Shown: one piece after another, positions 4,136 to 18,457 of the stretch | Layout of the letters: the number at the start of each line of letters is the position of its first letter | How positions within the stretch are numbered: position 1 is the stretch's first letter | NCBI RefSeq assembly: GCF_963921235.1 | Contig: NC_086108.1 | Location: 6,696,001 to 6,760,000, forward strand | DNA: 64,000 nt | Origin: Mobula hypostoma | Lineage: Eukaryota | Direction: 5' to 3' | The notes under the pieces: generated by a model | What the model saw: the letters and a program-made list of their open reading frames with translations, nothing else | Told to the model about the DNA's origin: nothing | Database searches by the model: none | Made by a program: the position numbers and the translations under genes

Positions 4136-4951
4136 GTATATAAGGTCTGATAGCAGCTGCCCTTATTTATGTTGCTGAGAATACACCAATCATCACTGTA
4201 CCCTGTTCCCTCATGGGCAGTCCTATTGAAGGGCCTTGGCCTGAAACATCTTTATTCCTCTCCATAGGTGCTCCCTGACCTGCTGAGTTCCTCCAGCATT
4301 TTGTGTGATATGTCGCTATAAGTAGCATATCTACATGAAACACTGTCGTAGGAAAGCAGCATCCATCATCAGAGATCCCCACCACCCAGGTCATGCTCTC
4401 TTCTCGCTGCTGCCATCAGGTAGCAGCTATGAGAGCCTCAGGACTCGCACCACCAGGTTCAGGAACAGTTACTACCCCTCAGTCAGCAGGTTCTTGAACA
4501 AAGGATTTAACTGCACTCACTTGCCCATCCATTGAGATGTTCCCACAACCAATGATCTCACTGTAAGTGTTCATTAGCTTGTTAATTCATGTTCTCATTA
4601 TTTATTGCTATTTATTTATTTTTGCATTTGCACAGTTTGTTGTCTTCTGTACTCGAGTTGATCTTTCATTGATCCTGTTACAGTTACTATTCTATAGATT
4701 TACTGGGTATGCCCACAGGAAAATGAATTTCAGGGTTGTAAATGGTGACATATATGTCTGTTGTTCAGTCGTTAAGTTGAGTCCGACTCTTTGTCACCTC
4801 ATGGACTCCTGCACACCAAGCCCTCTTGTTGGAAATGGCCTCTCTAAGACCTCCAAGGTCATACGCATTGTCTGAGTGATATTATCTATCCATCATAGCC
4901 TCTGTCGTCCTCTCCTTCTTTTACTTTCTCTTTTACCTAAAATGAGAGTCT

Positions 4952-10240: not shown

Positions 10241-12760
10241 TGTTCAGTAATTTGAATGTTCTTTTATACTTTTCTTCTTGGGAATTGGGATATAAACTGA
10301 TCTTTTCCAATCTAAAGGCCATTGTTGGGTTTTCCAGTTCTGCTGGCAAATAGCATGCAACACTTTTACAGCATCACTTTATCAAGTTTTAAACAATTCA
10401 GCTGGAATCCTGTCACACACTGCAGTCTTATTATTGGCAATGTTTTCTGTCGCTCATTCGACTTCACTTTCCAGAATGTCTGGCTCTAGATCAATAAGGA
10501 AGTCATTGCAGGTATCTTCGCTGTTGGGATCTTTCCTGTACAATTCTTCCCTGTATTCCTGCCATCTCTTTTTGATGCCTTCTGCTTCTGTGAGGTCCTT
10601 CCCTTCTTTGTATTTTACTATACTCGTTTTTGCATGTTATGTTCCTTTGATTTCTCTAATCTTCTTGAATAGATCTCTTGTTTTTCCAGTTCTGTTGGCT
10701 TCTTCAGCTTCGTTGTATCGCTCCTTTGAATAAGTTTCCTTATCTTTCCTTGCTATCTTCTTGAACTTTTCATTCAGTTGGAGGTATTCATTCCAATCTC
10801 CATTGGCCATCACTTCTCTTCACTGCTCCGCCACTTGAAGAGCCTCCGCAGAACGCCATTTTGCTCTCCTGATCTTTTTGTTTGCAATATTTTTGTTGCC
10901 ACCTCTTGCATAATGCTCCTTACTTCTATCCATAGATGCCAAAGAGGATGAAATTATCCAATTTTATGAAGAACTGCAGCACCTCCTGGATATGACACCA
11001 AAAAAGGATGTTACATTTATCATTGGAGACTTCAATGCCGCAGTTGAAAACCACAGAATGCCTAGAGTAATGGGCAACTTTGGCCTTGGGGTATGAATGA
11101 AGCAGGACATCGACTGGTAGAATTTTGCCAAATTAGCTCTCTGGTTATAGCAAATACCTCTTCCAACAGCCGAAGAGGTGGGTCTATACATGGACATATA
11201 TGTACTTTGATAATAAAATTTACTTTGAACTTCAAACAGACTGTATGTTGTGTATTTAATATTGATTGGTTGCATCACAGCTTGGTATGGAAACGCCAAT
11301 GCCCTTGAACGGAAAAACCTACAATAAGTAGCAGACACAGCCCAGTCCATCACAGGCAAAGCACTGAGCACATCTACACAGAGCGCCGTGGCAGGAAAGC
11401 AGCACCCATCGTCAGGGACCGCCCCCCACCCCCGCCACCCAGGTCATGCTCTCTCCTCACCACCGCCATTCCGAAAAAGGTACAGAGGCCTCACGACTCG
11501 CACCACCAGCTTCAGGAATAGTTACTACACCTCAACCATCAGGCTCTTGAACCAGTGAGACAATTTCACGCAACTTCACTTGCCCCATCACTGAACTGCT
11601 CCTACAACCTATGGACTCAGTTTCAAGGATCCTTTATCTCATGTTCTCGATATTTATTGTTTATTTATTGATTATTATTTCATTTGTATATTTTTTGTTT
11701 TTTCAGTTTGTTGTCCTTTGCACATGGGTTGTTTGTCCGTCCTGTTGGGTGTGGTCTTTCATTTATTCTATTGAGGTTCTTGGATTTACGGAGTATGCCC
11801 ACAAGAAAGTGAATCTCAGGGTTGTATATAAAAACATAGAAACACAGAAAACCTACAGCAAAATACAGGTCCTTCGGCCCACAAAGCTGTGCCGAACATG
11901 TCCCTACCTTAGAACTACCTAGGCTTACCCACAGCCCTCTATTTTTCTAAGCTCCATGCATCCATCCAGCAGTCTTTAAAAGGCCCTATTGTTTCCGCCT
12001 CCACCACTGCCGCCGGCAGCCCATTCCACACACTCACCACTCTCTGCATAAAAAGCTTACTCCTGGCATCTCCTCTGTACCTACTTCCAAGCACCTAAAA
12101 CTATGCCCTCTCATGCTAGCCATTTCAGCCCTAGGAAACAGCCTCTGACTATCCACACGATCAATGCCTCTCATCATCGTATACACCTCTATCAGGTCAC
12201 CTCTCATCCTCCGTCGCCCCAAGGAGAAAAGGCCGAGTTCACTCAACCTATTTCATAAGGCATGCTTGCCAATCCAGACAACATCCTTGTAAATCTCCTC
12301 TGCACCCTTTCTATAGTTTCCATATCCTTCCTGTAGTGAGGCGACCGGAACTGAGCACAGTACTCCAAGTGGGGCCTGACCAGGATCCTACATAGCTGCA
12401 ACATTACCCCTCGGCTCTTAAACTCAATCACACGATTGATGAAGGCCAATGCACCATATGCCTTCTTAACCACAGAATCAACCTGCACAGCAGCTTTGAG
12501 CGTCCTATAGACACAGACCCCAAGATCCCTCTGATCCTCCACACTGCCAAGAGTCTTACCATATTATGCCATCATATTTGACCAACCAAAATGAACCACC
12601 TCACACTTATCTGGGTTGAACTCCATCTGTCACTTCTCAGCCCAATTATGCTTCCTATCAATGTCCTACTGTAACCTCTGACAGTCCTCCACACTATCCA
12701 CAACACCTCCAACCTTTGTGTCATCAGCAAATTTACTAAGCCATCCCTTCACTTCCTCAT

Positions 12761-12988
12761 TGAAGCACCTTCAATTACTCCAAAAGACTGAGGTTTGGTA
12801 AAATACTGAAAGGCTTTTATTCGCTGTACAATATGACTTCCACGGTGAGTGTCTGCCCCCGGACTGAGGCGAGGGGCAAGGCGAACACCTTTATACAGGA
12901 CTCTGTGGGAGGAGCCACAGGGGCAGTCAGCAGAGGGGTGTGTCCAGACAGGTAACCGAGTTACAACATATATACATGGTTTACCACA
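12761..12988 (-). repeat. Gypsy 3' LTR (228 bp)
   Basis: Direct repeat of 17016-17245. On the element strand it has TATAAA followed by AATAAA. Confidence 0.97.
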
Positions 12989-13006
12989 TTCACCCCTCCT
13001 TTTTTT
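12989..13006 (-). other. Polypurine tract (PPT)
   Basis: Element strand reads AAAAAAAGGAGGGGTGAA immediately before the TG of the 3' LTR. Confidence 0.85.
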
Positions 13007-13090: not shown

Positions 13091-15404
13091 TCACTGTGAT
13101 CTACGTAGCACCGGCGATGGCGGTTGTGCTGGCTCCGGCCTGACTTGAGGTGTCAGCACGTTAGGCGTCGGTAATCCCTCGTGCGTGTGCGTCGCGCCCG
13201 GTATGGGAGTGTCGTGTGGTGTCTGTGTAGAGTTTGGGGTGCACGGTGTCTCGTAGGTACATACATTGGTGGGTATGGGGTTAATAGTCACCACGGAGTG
13301 TTCAGGGTAGGGGCCCGGAGCTCCTGCGGGCGCCAGGTCGCGGATGGAGACCGTGTCCTCCCGCCCATCAGGTAAAACCATGTAGGCATACTGGGGGTTC
13401 ACATGAAGTAAGTGAACCCTCTCGACTATTGGGGAGTATTTATTGCTCCTCGCATGTTTCCGGAGCAGCACTGGCCCCGGGGATGTCAGCCAAGTTGGTA
13501 GGGTGGTTCCAGTGGTCGATTTTCTGGGAAAAGAAAAGAGTCGCTCATGAGGGGTGGCATTGGTGGCTGTGCATAACAGGGAGCGGATGGAGTGGAGTGC
13601 CTCGGGAAGGACCTCCTGCCAGCGGGAGACCGGCAATCCCTTTGACCTGAGGGCTAAGAGTGTGGCTTTCCATACCGTGGCATTCTCCTTCTCTACCTGT
13701 CCATTCCCCCGGGGATTATAGCTTGTGGTCCTACTAGTTGCAATTCCCCTAGCCAGTAGGTATTGGCGCTGCTCGTCACTCATAAACGAGGACCCTCTGT
13801 CACTGTGGATATAGCATGGGTATCTGAACAGAGTGAAGAGCTTGCGCAGGGCTTTTATAACTGACGTGGTAGTGGTGTCGGGGCAGGGGATGGCGAAGGG
13901 GAACCGCGAGTACTCGTCGATAACGTTAAAAAAGTACACATTGCGGTCGGTGGAGAGAAGGGGGCCCTTAAAGTCAACACTCAGTCGCTCAAAGGGGCGG
14001 GTGGCCTTGATGAGTGGTGCCTTTTCGGGTCGGTAGAAGTGCGGTTTGCACTCTGCGCAGACTTGGCAGTCCCTGGTCATCATCCTGATCTCCTCAAGGG
14101 AGTAAGGCAGGTTCCGGGCTTTCACGAAGTGGAAAAGCCGGGTGGCAAAGGTCTACATGTAGGGCGTATAGCCGGTTGATCTGCGCGCTGGCGCACGTTC
14201 CCCGGGATAGGGAATCGGAGGGCTCGTTGAGCTTCCCAGGCCTGTACATGATGTCATAGTTGTAGGTGGAGAGTTCGATTCTCCACCTCAGAATTTTATC
14301 GTTTTTGATTTTGCTCCGCTGCTGATTATTAAATATGAATGCGACTGAGCGCTGGTCAGTTAGCAGGGTGAACCTTTTGCCGGCAAGATAGTGCCTCCAG
14401 TGCCTTATAGCTTCCACTATGGCCTGGGCCTCTTTCTCCACCGTGGAGTGCTGAATTTCAGGGCCTTGAAGGGTACGGGAGAAGAACGCCACCGGTCTTC
14501 CTGCCTGGTTGAGGGTAGCAGCCAGCGCAAAGTCGGAGGCGTCACTCTCTACTTGGAAGGGAATGGCCTCATCCACCGCATGCATTGCTGCTTTGGCAAT
14601 GTCCCCTTTTATGCGGTTGAAGGCCGCGTGGGCCTCGGCAGGGAGGGGGTGGGCCTTGTCTGCATACTTAGAGACCCATTGGGCGTAATATGAAAAGAAG
14701 CCCAGGCACCTTTTGAGGGCTCTGAGGGTATTGGGAAGAGGGAGTTCCAACAAGGGGCGCATACGGTCGGGGTCAGGGCCAATGACTCCATTCTCCACGA
14801 CACACCCAAGGATAGCAAGTCGGGTGGTCCCAAATACACACTTGTCCTTGTTATAGGTGAAGTTGAAAGATTTGGCCGCTTGGAGAAATTTTTGGAGGTT
14901 GTTATCGTGATCCTGCTGATCGTGACCGCAGATGGTGATGTTATCCAGATATGGGAACGTGGCCTTCAGAAAGCACTGGTCCACCATCCGGTCCATTGCC
15001 CTCTGGAAGACAGATACACCATTCGTGACACCAAAGGGGACGCGCAGGAATTGATAAAGCCTGCCGTCCGCCTCGAAGGCAGTGTAAGGGCGGTCCTCCC
15101 AGCGGATGGGGAGCTGATGGTAAGTCGATTTTAGGTCTATGGTCGAGTACACCTTGTACTGTGCTATCTGATTGACCATATCTGCGATGCGGGGTAGAGG
15201 GTACGCGTCGAGCTGCATGAACCTATTGATGGTCTGGCTATAGTCCACGACGATCCTATTCTTCTCCCCGTTCCGAACAACCACCACCTGCGCCCTCCAA
15301 GGACTTGTGCTTGCCTCAGTGACCCCCTCCCTGAGCAGTCGCTGCACCTCAGACTTAATGAAAGCTCTGTCCCCCGCGCTGTACCTTCTGCTTTTAGCTG
15401 CCAC
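13091..15404 (-). pseudogene. Gypsy pol: RT-RNase H (14094-15404) and integrase (13091-14125), frameshifted
   Basis: RT SPWRAQVVVV, IDLKSTYHQL, VPFGVTNG, YLDN; RH ESDAS...EKEAQA...LLTDQRS; IN HHCC (H...H...CQVC), VDFKG, HSDRG, NGQVEK. A frameshift lies in the IN zinc finger near 14130. No chromodomain is visible. Confidence 0.93.
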
Positions 15405-15612
15405 AGGTTTACAGACAGGGGTCAGGTTGGCGAACAGCGGTGGGGGAGGGATCCTGAGGGTGGAGAGGCCGCAGGTGGTGTCGGTGGTGTGGCAGTTGGC
15501 ATGATGTTGGGTGGGATGCGCGGGTTAGTGTGTGTGTGTGTGGTCAGTAGCGGGGTACGTGACATATCTCTACAAAACGGGATTTATGACAGTAATTGGC
15601 GGGAGGGGCCCA

Positions 15613-16989
15613 TCATACTTCATTGTCACGCTTTTCAGGTGGCTCTGGAAGTCCAACTCCAACAGTACAGGGGCACACAGTTGAGGCAAGACCAGTAACG
15701 TAAAGTCCCGATATTCTGTGCCCTGCACCACTAGTGTCGCTACACAACCCCCCCCGGATGTCTGTTGTATGCGACCTGGAGGCCATGGTGACCCTCTGAC
15801 TTACCGGCCGTATCATGAATCCACAATGCTGCACCGTGGCCGGGTGGATAAAACTCTCCGTGCTGCCTGTGTCAAACAGGCAGCTTGTCCTGTGCCCCTC
15901 CACCAGGATGTCCATCATTGACCTTGCGAGCTGGTGGGGAGCGCTTTGGTCGAGGGTCACGGAAGCCAGGGTGGGGTCGCTGTCTTGGTCCAGCATGGTG
16001 CGGTGCCCCGTGAGCACCCGTTGGTCGTAGGCGGTAGGAGGTGGCGCCGACCAAGATGGCCGCCCCCATGTCTCGCACGTGGTGGTGGCGTGCAGGGAAG
16101 ATGGCAGCAGGCAAGATGGCGACCCCCACGTCTCGCACGTGGTGGCAGTGTGCAGGGAAGATGGCGGCCCCCATGTCTCGCACGTGGTGGCAGTGTGCAG
16201 GGAAGATGGCGACCCCCACGTCTCGCACGCGGCGCTGCTCGATCCCGCTCGCGGTTTTGACTTACAGACCTTGGCGAAGTGGCCCTTCTTTCCGCAGTTG
16301 GAACAGGTAGCTTGTCGGGCCGTGCAGCGTTTCCGGGGGTGCTTCTCCAGTCCGCAGAAGTAGCACTTCGCGGACTCTCGACTGGCGGCAGCTGAGGTCG
16401 ATTTGCCGGCGGGTTGCGGGGTCTGCGGCACCCATGAGGCCGTCAGGGGATCGTGTGCCTGGAGAGCCTCGGAGTTATGCAGAGCGGCCTCCAACGTATC
16501 AGCCAGCTCGATCGCCGAACTTAGGGTAAGATCAGCTTTTTCCAGCAGCCGCTGGCGCACGTACACTGACCTGGTCCCCGTAACGAAGGCGTCTCTCACT
16601 AGGAGTTCTGCATGCTGCGCCACCGTCAGCTCCTGGCAATTGCAGGCTCACACGAGCGTCCGTAGGGCCCGGACAAACTCAGCACTCGATTCCCCGGACC
16701 GTTGTTGCCGTGTCGCTAAGCGATGCCGAGCATAGACGCTGTTTATCGGCTGCAGGTATTGTCTTTTGAGTGCGTTCATCGCGCCGTCGTAGTTCGGCTG
16801 GTCTCTGATCAGCGAATAAACCCGTGGACTGACCCTGGAGAGTAGAATTCTGAGCTTCGCTATGGGGTCGGTCACTTTAATTTCCTCTAGATACGCTTCG
16901 AAGCAGGCCAGCCAGAGTTCGAAAGTGTTTCCGGCGTCAGGCATTCGCGGATGGAGGTCTAATTTTTCTGGTCTCAGGGCCTGTTCCAT
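15613..16989 (-). pseudogene. Gypsy gag-protease with in-frame stop (16648-16650) and frameshift at a G8 run (~15750)
   Basis: ATG at 16989 (MEQALRPEKL). The two ORFs are in one frame across the TGA. Knuckles CYFCGLEKHPRKRC and CSNCGKKGHFAKVC; protease LFDTGS; the PR C-terminus (PVLLELDF) continues in a shifted frame. Confidence 0.9.
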
Positions 16990-17015
16990 GTTTTAAAATG
17001 TACAGCGAATAAAAT

Positions 17016-17245
17016 TGAAGCACCTTCAATTACTCCAAAAGACTGAGGTTTGGTTAAAATACTGAAAGGCATTTATTCGCTGTACAATACGACCTCCACA
17101 GTGAGTGCCTGCCCCCGGACTGAGGGGGAGGGGCAAGACGAACACCTTTATACAGGACTCTGTGGGAGGAGCCACAGGGGCAGTCAGCAGAGGGGTGTGT
17201 CCAGACAGGTAACCGAGTTACAACATATATACATGGTTTACCACA
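17016..17245 (-). repeat. Gypsy 5' LTR (230 bp)
   Basis: Direct repeat of 12761-12988. TATAAA at 17152-17147 and AATAAA at 17077-17072 on the element strand. Confidence 0.97.
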
Positions 17246-17615
17246 CTCATCTAGGTCATTTAGAAAAATCACAAAGAGTAGGGTCCCAGAACAGATCCCT
17301 GAGGCACACCACTGGTCACCGGTCTCCACGCAGAATATGACCCGTACACAACCACTCTTTGCCTTCTGTGGGCAAGCCAATTCTGGATCCACAAAGCAAT
17401 GTCCCTTTGGATCCCATGCCTTCTTACTTTCTCACTAAGCCTTGCATGGGGTACCTTATCAAATGCCTTGCTAAAATCCATATACACTACATCTACTGGT
17501 CTACCTTCATCAATGTGTTTAGTCACATCCTCAAAAAATTCAGTCAGGCTCGTAAGGCACGACCTGCCTTTGACAAAGCCATGCTGACTATTCCTAATCA
17601 CTGAGGGCTGTGGAG

Positions 17616-18080
17616 GTGAGTGAAGTTATCCACACTAGTTCAGGAGCCTGATGGTTGTGGGGTAATAACTGTTCCTGAACCTGGTGGTGTGGGACCTGAG
17701 GCTCATTGTGGTGAGTGAAGTTATCCACACTGGTTCAGGAGCCTGATGGTTGTGGGGTGATAACTGTTCCTGAACCTGGTGGTGTGGGACCTGAGGCTCA
17801 TTGTGATGAGTGAAGTTATCCACACTGGTTCAGGAGCCTGATGGTCGAGGGGTAATAACCGTTCCTGAACCTGGTGGTGTGGGACCTGAGACTCATTGTG
17901 GTGAGTGAAGTTATCCACACTGGTTCAGGAGCCTGATGGTTGTGGGGTAATAACTGTTCCTGAACCTGGTGGTGTGGGACCTGAGGCTCATTGTGGTGAG
18001 TGGAGTTATCCACACTGGTTCAGGAGCCTGATGGTTGTCGGGTGATAACTGTTCCTGAACCTGGTGGTGTGGGACCTAAG
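17616..18080. repeat. 95-bp tandem array (~4.9 units) derived from a Rex1/Babar 3' region
   Basis: Units start at 17616, 17711, 17806, 17901 and 17996. The array runs on into non-tandem LINE sequence to ~18260. Confidence 0.92.
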
Positions 18081-18457
18081 CCTCTTGTACCTTCTTCCCA
18101 ATGGCAGCAGTGAGAAGAGAGCATGGTCTGGATGGTGGGAATCCTTGATGTTAGATGCTGCTTTCTTTTGGCAGCGCTCCTTGTAGATGTGCTAATTGGT
18201 GGGGAGGGCTTTGCCTGTGATGGGCTAGGCTGCATCCACTATATTTTGTGGGCTTTTCTATTCTGTTGTACAACTTCAATAAGAGAAGGGTGATTCTAGT
18301 CCACACATTTTTTCATTTCGGTGTTATTAAAGTTCAGAAGCAGACCCTTCAACCAATATACCTGTACTAACCAGGCAAGGACACATCTGCACTAATCCCA
18401 TTTTCCAGCACTTGTAGAAACATTGGTTGATTAATCTGGAGCGTCAGAGGCCGAGGG

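Follow-up and report, generated by a model that had tools for sequence, protein, structure and literature searches.

Self-complementarity between the LTR and the primer position of a Gypsy element from Mobula hypostoma points to Tf1-type self-priming in a clade without a chromodomain

Main finding

The DNA analyzed here, called the window, is a stretch of 64,000 nucleotides (nt) from Mobula hypostoma (contig NC_086108.1, positions 6,696,001 to 6,760,000). Its minus strand carries a Gypsy long terminal repeat (LTR) retrotransposon with LTRs of 230 and 228 bp (TGTGG...CTTCA) and a 5-bp target duplication. Where a tRNA-type primer site would be expected, this element has a segment that pairs perfectly with its own LTR. 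The pairing is a clade trait and not chance. We think it probable that this is self-priming of the Tf1 type, in a non-chromoviral and probably Mag-like clade of Gypsy elements. This reading is preferred because the right arm of the duplex lies at the position of the minus-strand primer, covaries with the element's own LTR and never uses G-U pairs.

The junction in the window copy

A single A (17015) separates the terminal CA of the 5' LTR from TTTTATTCGCTGTACA at 17014-16999. This segment is the perfect reverse complement of 17086-17072 in the 5' LTR (15/15, inverted repeat I13) and of 12830-12815 in the 3' LTR (16/16, inverted repeat I9). A preliminary description of this DNA, made from the letters alone, had claimed both matches, and the same coordinates were recovered. 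The 5' LTR gives 15/15 rather than 16/16 on account of a change at 17071 that is private to the window copy; 29/30 family copies have AAAA here. The same description had claimed that there is no TGG primer site and that a 26-nt leader precedes the gag ATG. Both can be read from the sequence, and the only TGG between the LTR and gag overlaps the ATG itself. The AATAAA in the paired LTR stretch was placed at 17077-17072, and the TATAAA was recovered at 17152-17147. The features of the junction are as follows.

17016..17245, minus strand: 5' LTR, 230 bp, TGTGG...CTTCA (direct repeats D3-D5, spacing 4255-4257; borders by sequence reading)
17147..17152, minus strand: TATAAA box in the unique 3' region (U3), 31 nt upstream of A 17121, with a presumed role in transcription
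17117..17124, minus strand: initiator-like motif CTCAGTCC with predicted start at A 17121 (by sequence reading)
17072..17086, minus strand: LTR arm of the duplex, candidate self-primer TGTACAGCGAATAAA, containing AATAAA
17015..17071, minus strand: loop between the arms, that is, the rest of the terminal repeat region (R) and the unique 5' region (U5), with its own hairpin in the computed fold
16999..17014, minus strand: putative primer-binding site, 1 nt past the CA (17017-17016) of the LTR

Chance was assessed with 395 internal windows of 30 nt and with 2000 shuffled LTRs; perfect LTR complements did not exceed 11 nt in the former or 12 nt in the latter. Since the observed 15 and 16 nt exceed both maxima, chance is excluded. 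When the RNA 17121-16960 was folded computationally, both arms were paired and a second hairpin formed in the loop (-47.3 kcal/mol, z -2.98). None of 200 shuffles folded as low.

Conservation of the hairpin in relatives

An alignment of the reverse transcriptase (RT) frame with 21 database relatives led to 80 metagenome loci with 43-62% RT identity. A flanking direct-repeat pair was found in 26 of them. In 16 of these 26, a perfect complement of 12-19 nt lies within the 30 nt after the left repeat and begins 0-2 nt past its end; internal control windows of the repeat-pair loci gave 7-13 nt. Two further loci, L137 (10 nt) and L121 (0), were scored low where the BLAST end of the LTR overran the site, and 16-nt arms were recovered in both on rereading. 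The repeat pairs of L109, L110, L126 and L155 stand at both contig ends and, in our judgement, look like assembly overlaps. Those of L111, L112, L145 and L171 were judged to be misplaced.

The hairpin was found inside L109 and L110 by a scan that is independent of the LTRs. It looked for perfect inverted repeats of at least 12 nt with a loop of 25-95 nt, located 1180-1330 nt upstream of RT residue 1. Such a repeat was present in 25/39 loci, compared with 3/106 coding control windows. With ungapped 14-nt arms, a score of at least 13/14 was reached in 31/47 testable loci and in 2/187 control scans. Shorter loci also show arms, of 18 nt in L131, 13 nt in L172 and L168, and 11 nt in L132. Among relatives with a readable junction, no TGG-type site was found, L129 (discussed below) aside.

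An RT tree was built from unnamed relatives and ten database proteins; its unlabelled rows lack 5' junction sequence. Elements with the hairpin are found on either side of the midpoint root. The window element groups with three ray proteins with a support of 100.

Covariation and folding of the arms

From 27 elements, 21 distinct arm sequences were obtained. All of them are 12/12 Watson-Crick with zero G-U at positions anchored on the LTR-proximal end of the arms, an anchor that is the structure itself and biases these pair counts towards pairing. When the LTR arm of one element was compared with the primer site of another, the mean fell to 6.56/12, and 12 was reached only by near-identical elements. 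Sliding the partner by 1-3 nt left 3.0-4.1/12.

Matched double changes can be followed in three pairs of close relatives: L115/L116 (T>G with A>C), L145/L152 (G>A with C>T) and L108/L110 (C>T with G>A). The preliminary description had proposed a search for compensatory changes between the site and the LTR segment. They are present in these three pairs, and the 21 distinct arms are all paired, so that pairing is retained in relatives through two-sided changes, as self-priming requires.

Most elements share the start of the primer site, TTTA, and in 17 of the 21 arm sequences the bases just past the LTR arm (...TAAA) are GCC or ACC. Counted from its 3' end, the LTR arm has an A at 11 nt and a G at 10 nt (17 and 18 of the 21); a pyrimidine usually follows, and the motif resembles an initiator core. 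A start of the RNA at this A-G would yield a primer of 11 nt like that of Tf1; it was considered and set aside, as perfect pairing extends over 12-19 nt.

The arms were paired in the minimum-energy fold of all 18 representatives and of the window copy. As read from the printed folds, a small hairpin starts at or next to the first base past the LTR arm in about 14 of the 18. Loop length among the elements of the covariation set is 36-79 nt.

The family in the host genome

To find copies of the family, the host genome (3.48 Gb, 200 contigs) was searched with an LTR-leader query; 40 candidates were scored and 30 copies were read. The search gave 1714 first-look candidates, with 97-100% identity among the 40 scored, and some copies retain open frames of up to 1357 amino acids (aa). 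The family is young and high-copy.

Among the 30 copies read, the perfect complement is 16 nt long in 20, 15 nt in 6, 14 nt in 2, 11 nt in 1 and 7 nt in 1. Loss of the pairing in most family copies, which the preliminary description had named as a refutation, is thus not what is found. Position 16 of the primer site (16999) is A in 23/30 copies and G in 7/30, the latter giving a U-G wobble. Because G is in complete linkage with two other shared variants, it is inherited rather than the result of independent hits. It is compatible with a primer whose first base is G 17085, but equally with simple tolerance at the end of the helix. Many shared variants are spread over the 30 copies in an incongruent way. 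Such a mosaic is expected if several active lineages recombined.

The closest proteins come from two rays (77-80% identity), followed by pol proteins of cnidarians, flatworms, nematodes, spiders and crustaceans (50-62%). Short Logan contigs of uncertain kind from four sequencing runs (X1, X4, X9 and X10) carry changed letters within the primer site of other organisms, such as 17002 and 17006 in X9. No contig in these runs spans both arms, hence no cross-species covariation is readable there.

Host tRNAs and the primer site

Mature tRNAs end in CCA and require a primer site that starts with TGG. We compared the primer site with 23 distinct host tRNA genes, which cover three anticodon types only (Lys-UUU, Cys-GCA and Thr-CGU), and found pairing of at most 6 nt. 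It covers part of the tRNA comparison that the preliminary description had suggested. No Rfam match was found in 16850-17300. The contigs of a single assembly carry three different primer sites (L114, L115/116 and L119/120), which argues against a host tRNA.

A second abundant Gypsy family of the same genome (L031-L060) has a normal TGG site, TGGTGACCCCGACGG, 2 nt past its LTR. The host therefore supports ordinary tRNA priming, and the odd site is a property of the window element. The second family, recognisable by a strong DUF7041 gag domain (84-91 bits), gave 3409 first-look candidates. Its LTRs start with TGTGGCG, and its TTTAAAG box stands only about 24 nt before AATAAA. Searches for divergent families of the same genome by way of ray and invertebrate proteins returned the window family again.

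In the genome-wide Rfam search for tRNAs, nearly all hits came from one tRNA-Lys(UUU) array and from Cys and Thr genes. The array holds dozens of genes on contig C90 at about 4.02-4.33 Mb (L067-L090 and L102-L106). No tRNA genes were found in the 64-kb window.

Proposed mechanism

The geometry of the duplex, the lack of a tRNA-type site and the conservation with matched changes across a broad clade are observed. The last of these strongly supports self-priming, which the preliminary description had put forward as a candidate. The LTR segment UGUACAGCGAAUAAAA of the transcript would fold back over a loop of 56-58 nt, made up of the rest of R and of U5 with its own hairpin. It would pair with the 16 nt that start one base past the terminal CA of the LTR. 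The element's ribonuclease H (RNase H) would then cleave the RNA where the arm ends on its 3' side, after ...UAAA(A); the one lead on this cut is the conserved ...TAAA junction with GCC or ACC beyond it. The new 3'-OH would be extended through U5 and the short rest of R, and the resulting strong-stop DNA of about 56 nt would jump to the 3' R. In plus-strand synthesis the RNA primer would be copied, and the primer-binding site would be rewritten in each cycle. Such rewriting from the RNA primer is proposed as the reason why the arms are perfectly Watson-Crick in every lineage. The cleavage, the exact 5' end of the primer and the border between R and U5 are the parts of this scheme that we infer.

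RNA start and poly(A) signal

The TATAAA (17152) and the A (17121) of the initiator-like motif are 31 nt apart, which is the canonical spacing. The doubt raised in the preliminary description, that the paired segment might not be the 5' end of the RNA, is a fair one. A clear TATA box is absent from the relatives. If transcription started at 17121, the tail ahead of the primer would be copied when the plus strand is made, and the second jump should suffer from it. Under the copy model, a start at 17086 or 17085 is thus the favoured one. A primer beginning at G 17085 would agree with how abruptly perfect pairing ends and with the heritable A/G at pair 16. The preliminary description had also considered a primer derived from a 3'-terminal R segment, and nothing in this analysis favours that source.

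Poly(A) addition is predicted near 17050 on the basis of three features: the hexamer, a CA near 17051 and GU-rich sequence at 17041-17033. The R available for the jump would then be about 21 nt long. Some 21 lineages can be compared: in about 12 of them the LTR arm ends in a canonical AATAAA or ATTAAA, and in about 5 the arm contains a one-letter variant. Four lineages (L134, L160, L141 and L186) keep the pairing without a poly(A)-like hexamer, and in L108 the AATAAA lies in the loop and not in the arm. Because these four lineages pair without the hexamer, the conserved function is the pairing beside the LTR end and not masking. Masking of the 5' poly(A) signal is weakly supported and may be a secondary benefit. 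The preliminary description had proposed such masking; its observation that the hexamer lies in the arm extends to about 12 lineages, and the four lineages without the hexamer tell against masking as the general role.

A wider view would be that the whole chromodomain-less Gypsy clade, from cnidarian-like hosts to cartilaginous fish, gave up tRNA priming. The self-primer would mostly be built around the poly(A) hexamer, one duplex would serve both as primer and in silencing only the 5' poly(A) signal, and the fish primer would perhaps be cut from the interior of R, a mode not described for Tf1. We regard this combined view as possible but rather doubtful.

Points against self-priming and alternative explanations

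Several observations weigh against self-priming. With 14-nt arms, 16/47 loci score 12/14 or less. By eye, these are mostly decayed or 5'-truncated copies: L144, L167, L143 and L128 are visibly decayed forms of the same hairpins, and others have no recognisable gag upstream. In L129 (1-60), ...TTACAA and then TGGTCCTCCA occupy the expected place, and the end of the contig truncates the LTR. This element may be an exception within the clade that is primed by a tRNA, unless its arm simply lies out of view. Judging by the TATA box and initiator, the RNA is predicted to start at 17121, 35 nt ahead of the paired segment; a primer with such a 35-nt 5' tail would be unlike Tf1 and awkward for plus-strand transfer. 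Because the arms share conserved letters, covariation is free mainly at positions 5-9 and from 12 onward. The anchoring of the pair counts and the three anticodon types of the host tRNA set, both given above, belong here as well.

The predicted start at 17121 would make the LTR arm internal, and this suits a plain hairpin. The duplex would then be a regulatory or structural RNA (in poly(A) masking, packaging or dimerisation, or in control of gag translation, the right arm ending 0-26 nt before the AUG), and priming would be done by something else. The frequent AATAAA or ATTAAA at the end of the LTR arm speaks for such a role, as does the RNA 3' end, where the arm has no partner downstream and the signal would be free. 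The right arm also abuts or overlaps the gag ATG in several relatives. We nevertheless consider a purely structural hairpin unlikely. It does not account for the four lineages that pair without a hexamer or for the position of AATAAA in L108, and no other primer site is visible. The right arm is always 0-2 nt past the LTR end, which among these roles is demanded by a primer site alone. Finally, about 300 pairs with zero G-U suit templated copying better than selection for stability.

Priming by another RNA molecule appears far less probable still. A host tRNA fragment or other small RNA might prime at 17014-16999, with the likeness to the LTR being secondary; internal or half-tRNA primers are known in some Copia lineages according to passages of PMC6317226, and the host comparison covered few anticodons. 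This is highly improbable, given that there is no TGG within 26 nt of the LTR, that the 23 tRNA genes and the Rfam search gave no candidate, and that the site differs between close relatives and changes along with their own LTR, which a conserved host RNA cannot explain. Hardly more probable is a role of the pairing in strand transfer or between co-packaged RNAs, in which the site would pair with the R of another RNA or with the 3' R and priming would occur in trans. The 16/16 pairing of the 3' LTR arm agrees with it, and the variant mosaic in the 30 copies suggests frequent recombination between co-packaged RNAs. Trans priming is a variant of self-priming rather than a true alternative, and this analysis cannot separate cis from trans; the short loop and the conserved hairpin within it fit an intramolecular fold.

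Classification and comparison with known systems

No chromodomain was found at E values up to 0.01 in the window integrase frame, which runs to its stop, or in three intact relatives of 1183-1234 aa. The preliminary description, which had noted no chromodomain in the window copy, is borne out and extended by these relatives. The intact relatives have the order gag, protease (PR), RT, RNase H and integrase (IN). The window copy has the Ty3/gypsy (Metaviridae) domain order PR-RT-RNaseH-IN and a Gypsy-type RT_RNaseH domain, and lacks the chromodomain at the integrase C-terminus that marks the Tf1/sushi chromoviruses. The clade is not a chromovirus clade. The best match among solved structures is the Ty3 RT (E 3e-45), a match that does not resolve clades.

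Size, a single frame, short LTRs and the LTR ends of the relatives suggest the Mag lineage, perhaps the SURL-type C-clade. Like Mag, SURL/C-clade and Jule elements, the relatives have one compact gag-pol frame (1183-1234 aa), a length of 4.0-4.6 kb, LTRs of about 100-300 bp and hosts throughout the metazoa. Tables 1 and 3 of PMC3601003 give Mag C-clade LTRs of about 170 bp with the motif TGTNATRT ... AYANAACA. The LTRs of the relatives start with TGTTGTG, TGATGTG or TGTAGTA and end with ...CTACAACA, ...TCATAACA or ...ATACAACA, a partial fit in which the ends ...ACAACA and ...ATAACA resemble AYANAACA. The LTR of the window element does not follow the motif, its ends being TGTGGTAA...GGTGCTTCA (...GCTTCA). 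Passages and Table 1 of PMC3286476 report tRNA-Leu or tRNA-Ser sites in insect Mag elements, unlike the present clade, in which no junction that could be read, L129 aside, has a tRNA-type site. The SURL-type C-clade is suspected to be widespread in passages of PMC6238403.

The closest functional parallel is in fungal chromoviruses. Self-priming has been shown for Tf1 and Tf2 of Schizosaccharomyces pombe and proposed for Tj1 of S. japonicus, as stated in passages of PMC4600332 and PMC5341516, and in these elements the primer is freed by the element's own RNase H, a step that we infer for the present clade. Both groups have no tRNA site, an LTR (R) stretch that pairs just past the LTR and a structured U5 loop between the arms. 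The present clade differs in having no chromodomain and a duplex of 12-19 nt that usually ends in a poly(A) hexamer. The Tf1 arm forms the very 5' end of its RNA, whereas the promoter motifs of the fish family predict a start 35 nt upstream of the arm. Levin's papers on Tf1 reportedly describe an 11-nt primer and a requirement for an inverted repeat in U5 (U5-IR).

Among vertebrate elements, self-priming of sushi has been predicted from complementarity between the LTR and the primer site (Butler et al. 2001, via passages of PMC6317226 and PMC4600332). The sushi-ichi group and the window element are thus both vertebrate Gypsy elements with such complementarity. Unlike Tf1 and sushi, which are chromoviruses, the window element has an integrase C-terminus without a chromodomain, and its nearest proteins are ray and then invertebrate pol. 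Passages of PMC6317226 also list moss chromoviruses of the Tcn1 clade and plant Copia elements of the TAR lineage as predicted self-primers. Their sites are likewise complementary to their own LTR and not to a tRNA, but they belong to other superfamilies or clades and to other hosts. A passage of PMC3601003 describes self-priming as a trait of "several chromoviruses". We found no published self-priming in Mag, SURL, Jule or C-clade elements, although an earlier mention in Jule or SURL papers or in Repbase notes is possible.

A parallel for the hexamer is the poly(A) hairpin of human immunodeficiency virus type 1 (HIV-1), in which a structure in the retroviral 5' R occludes the poly(A) signal. 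Here too the 5' copy of AAUAAA is held in a stem and the 3' copy is without a partner. The HIV-1 hairpin is local in R and unrelated to priming, whereas the partner in the present elements is the primer site and the hexamer is not in the arm of every lineage.

Significance

The results point to a new lineage for a known mechanism. The twist would be the choice between a terminal and an internal primer, together with the overlap with the poly(A) signal. In the literature (PMC6317226 and PMC3601003), self-priming is associated with the Tf1/sushi chromoviruses and the moss relatives of these, and with a few Copia lineages. The same architecture marks here a separate, chromodomain-less Gypsy clade of many animals, one family of which ranks with the youngest and most abundant repeats in a fish genome of 3.5 Gb.

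For annotation, pipelines that rely on tRNA sites would label such elements "PBS-less", that is, without a primer-binding site (PBS). One example is an eLife survey (PMC13524379) that looked only for tRNA 3' ends. Silencing by tRNA fragments, a host defence that targets tRNA primer sites according to the abstract of PMC7472051, would miss such elements. The clade also adds a data point to the debate, taken up in passages of PMC3601003, on whether hairpin priming predates tRNA priming. Because the primer and the poly(A) signal overlap, a connection between replication and 3'-end processing can be put to the test.

Coding region and insertion site

The remaining features of the element are as follows.

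17246..17250, minus strand: target-site duplication, upstream copy ATGAG (the same 5 bases border both LTRs)
13091..16989, minus strand: gag-PR-RT-RNaseH-IN coding region with ATG at 16989-16987 (open reading frames and Pfam)
12993..13006, minus strand: polypurine tract AAAAAAAGGAGGGG, 4 nt ahead of the 3' LTR (by sequence reading)
12761..12988, minus strand: 3' LTR, 228 bp, with its arm at 12815-12830
12756..12760, minus strand: target-site duplication, downstream copy ATGAG (by sequence reading)

The coding region of the window copy (internal 3.9 kb) is split into several frames. Pfam matches are zf-CCHC in gag (two CCHC knuckles), aspartyl protease, RVT_1, RT_RNaseH and rve. Between the two LTRs, 220/231 aligned columns are identical, about 95% identity or 5% divergence (the boundaries in the alignment are off by 1-2 nt).

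The element interrupts an RT frame of the long interspersed nuclear element (LINE) type (RVT_1, E 2e-14) on the minus strand at 17251-17625 and 12243-12755. Since this frame runs on across the insertion (...FLNDLDE to FADDTK...), the 5-bp duplication has a clean empty-site reading.

In the linker between the zinc knuckles and the protease, a tandem repeat at 16053-16255 has 4 copies of 45-60-bp units with 60-92% identity, which code for CETWG.PSSLHTATT-like units. Indels distinguish sister copies in this stretch (alignment columns about +1060 to +1180, counted from the primer site); repeat number is thus variable in the family. Next to the insertion, a 95-bp tandem array at 17615-18179 has 5 units with 96-97% identity. 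Related sequence is found in inverted orientation at 11307-11557, about 6 kb away across the element (D1 and I1-I7).
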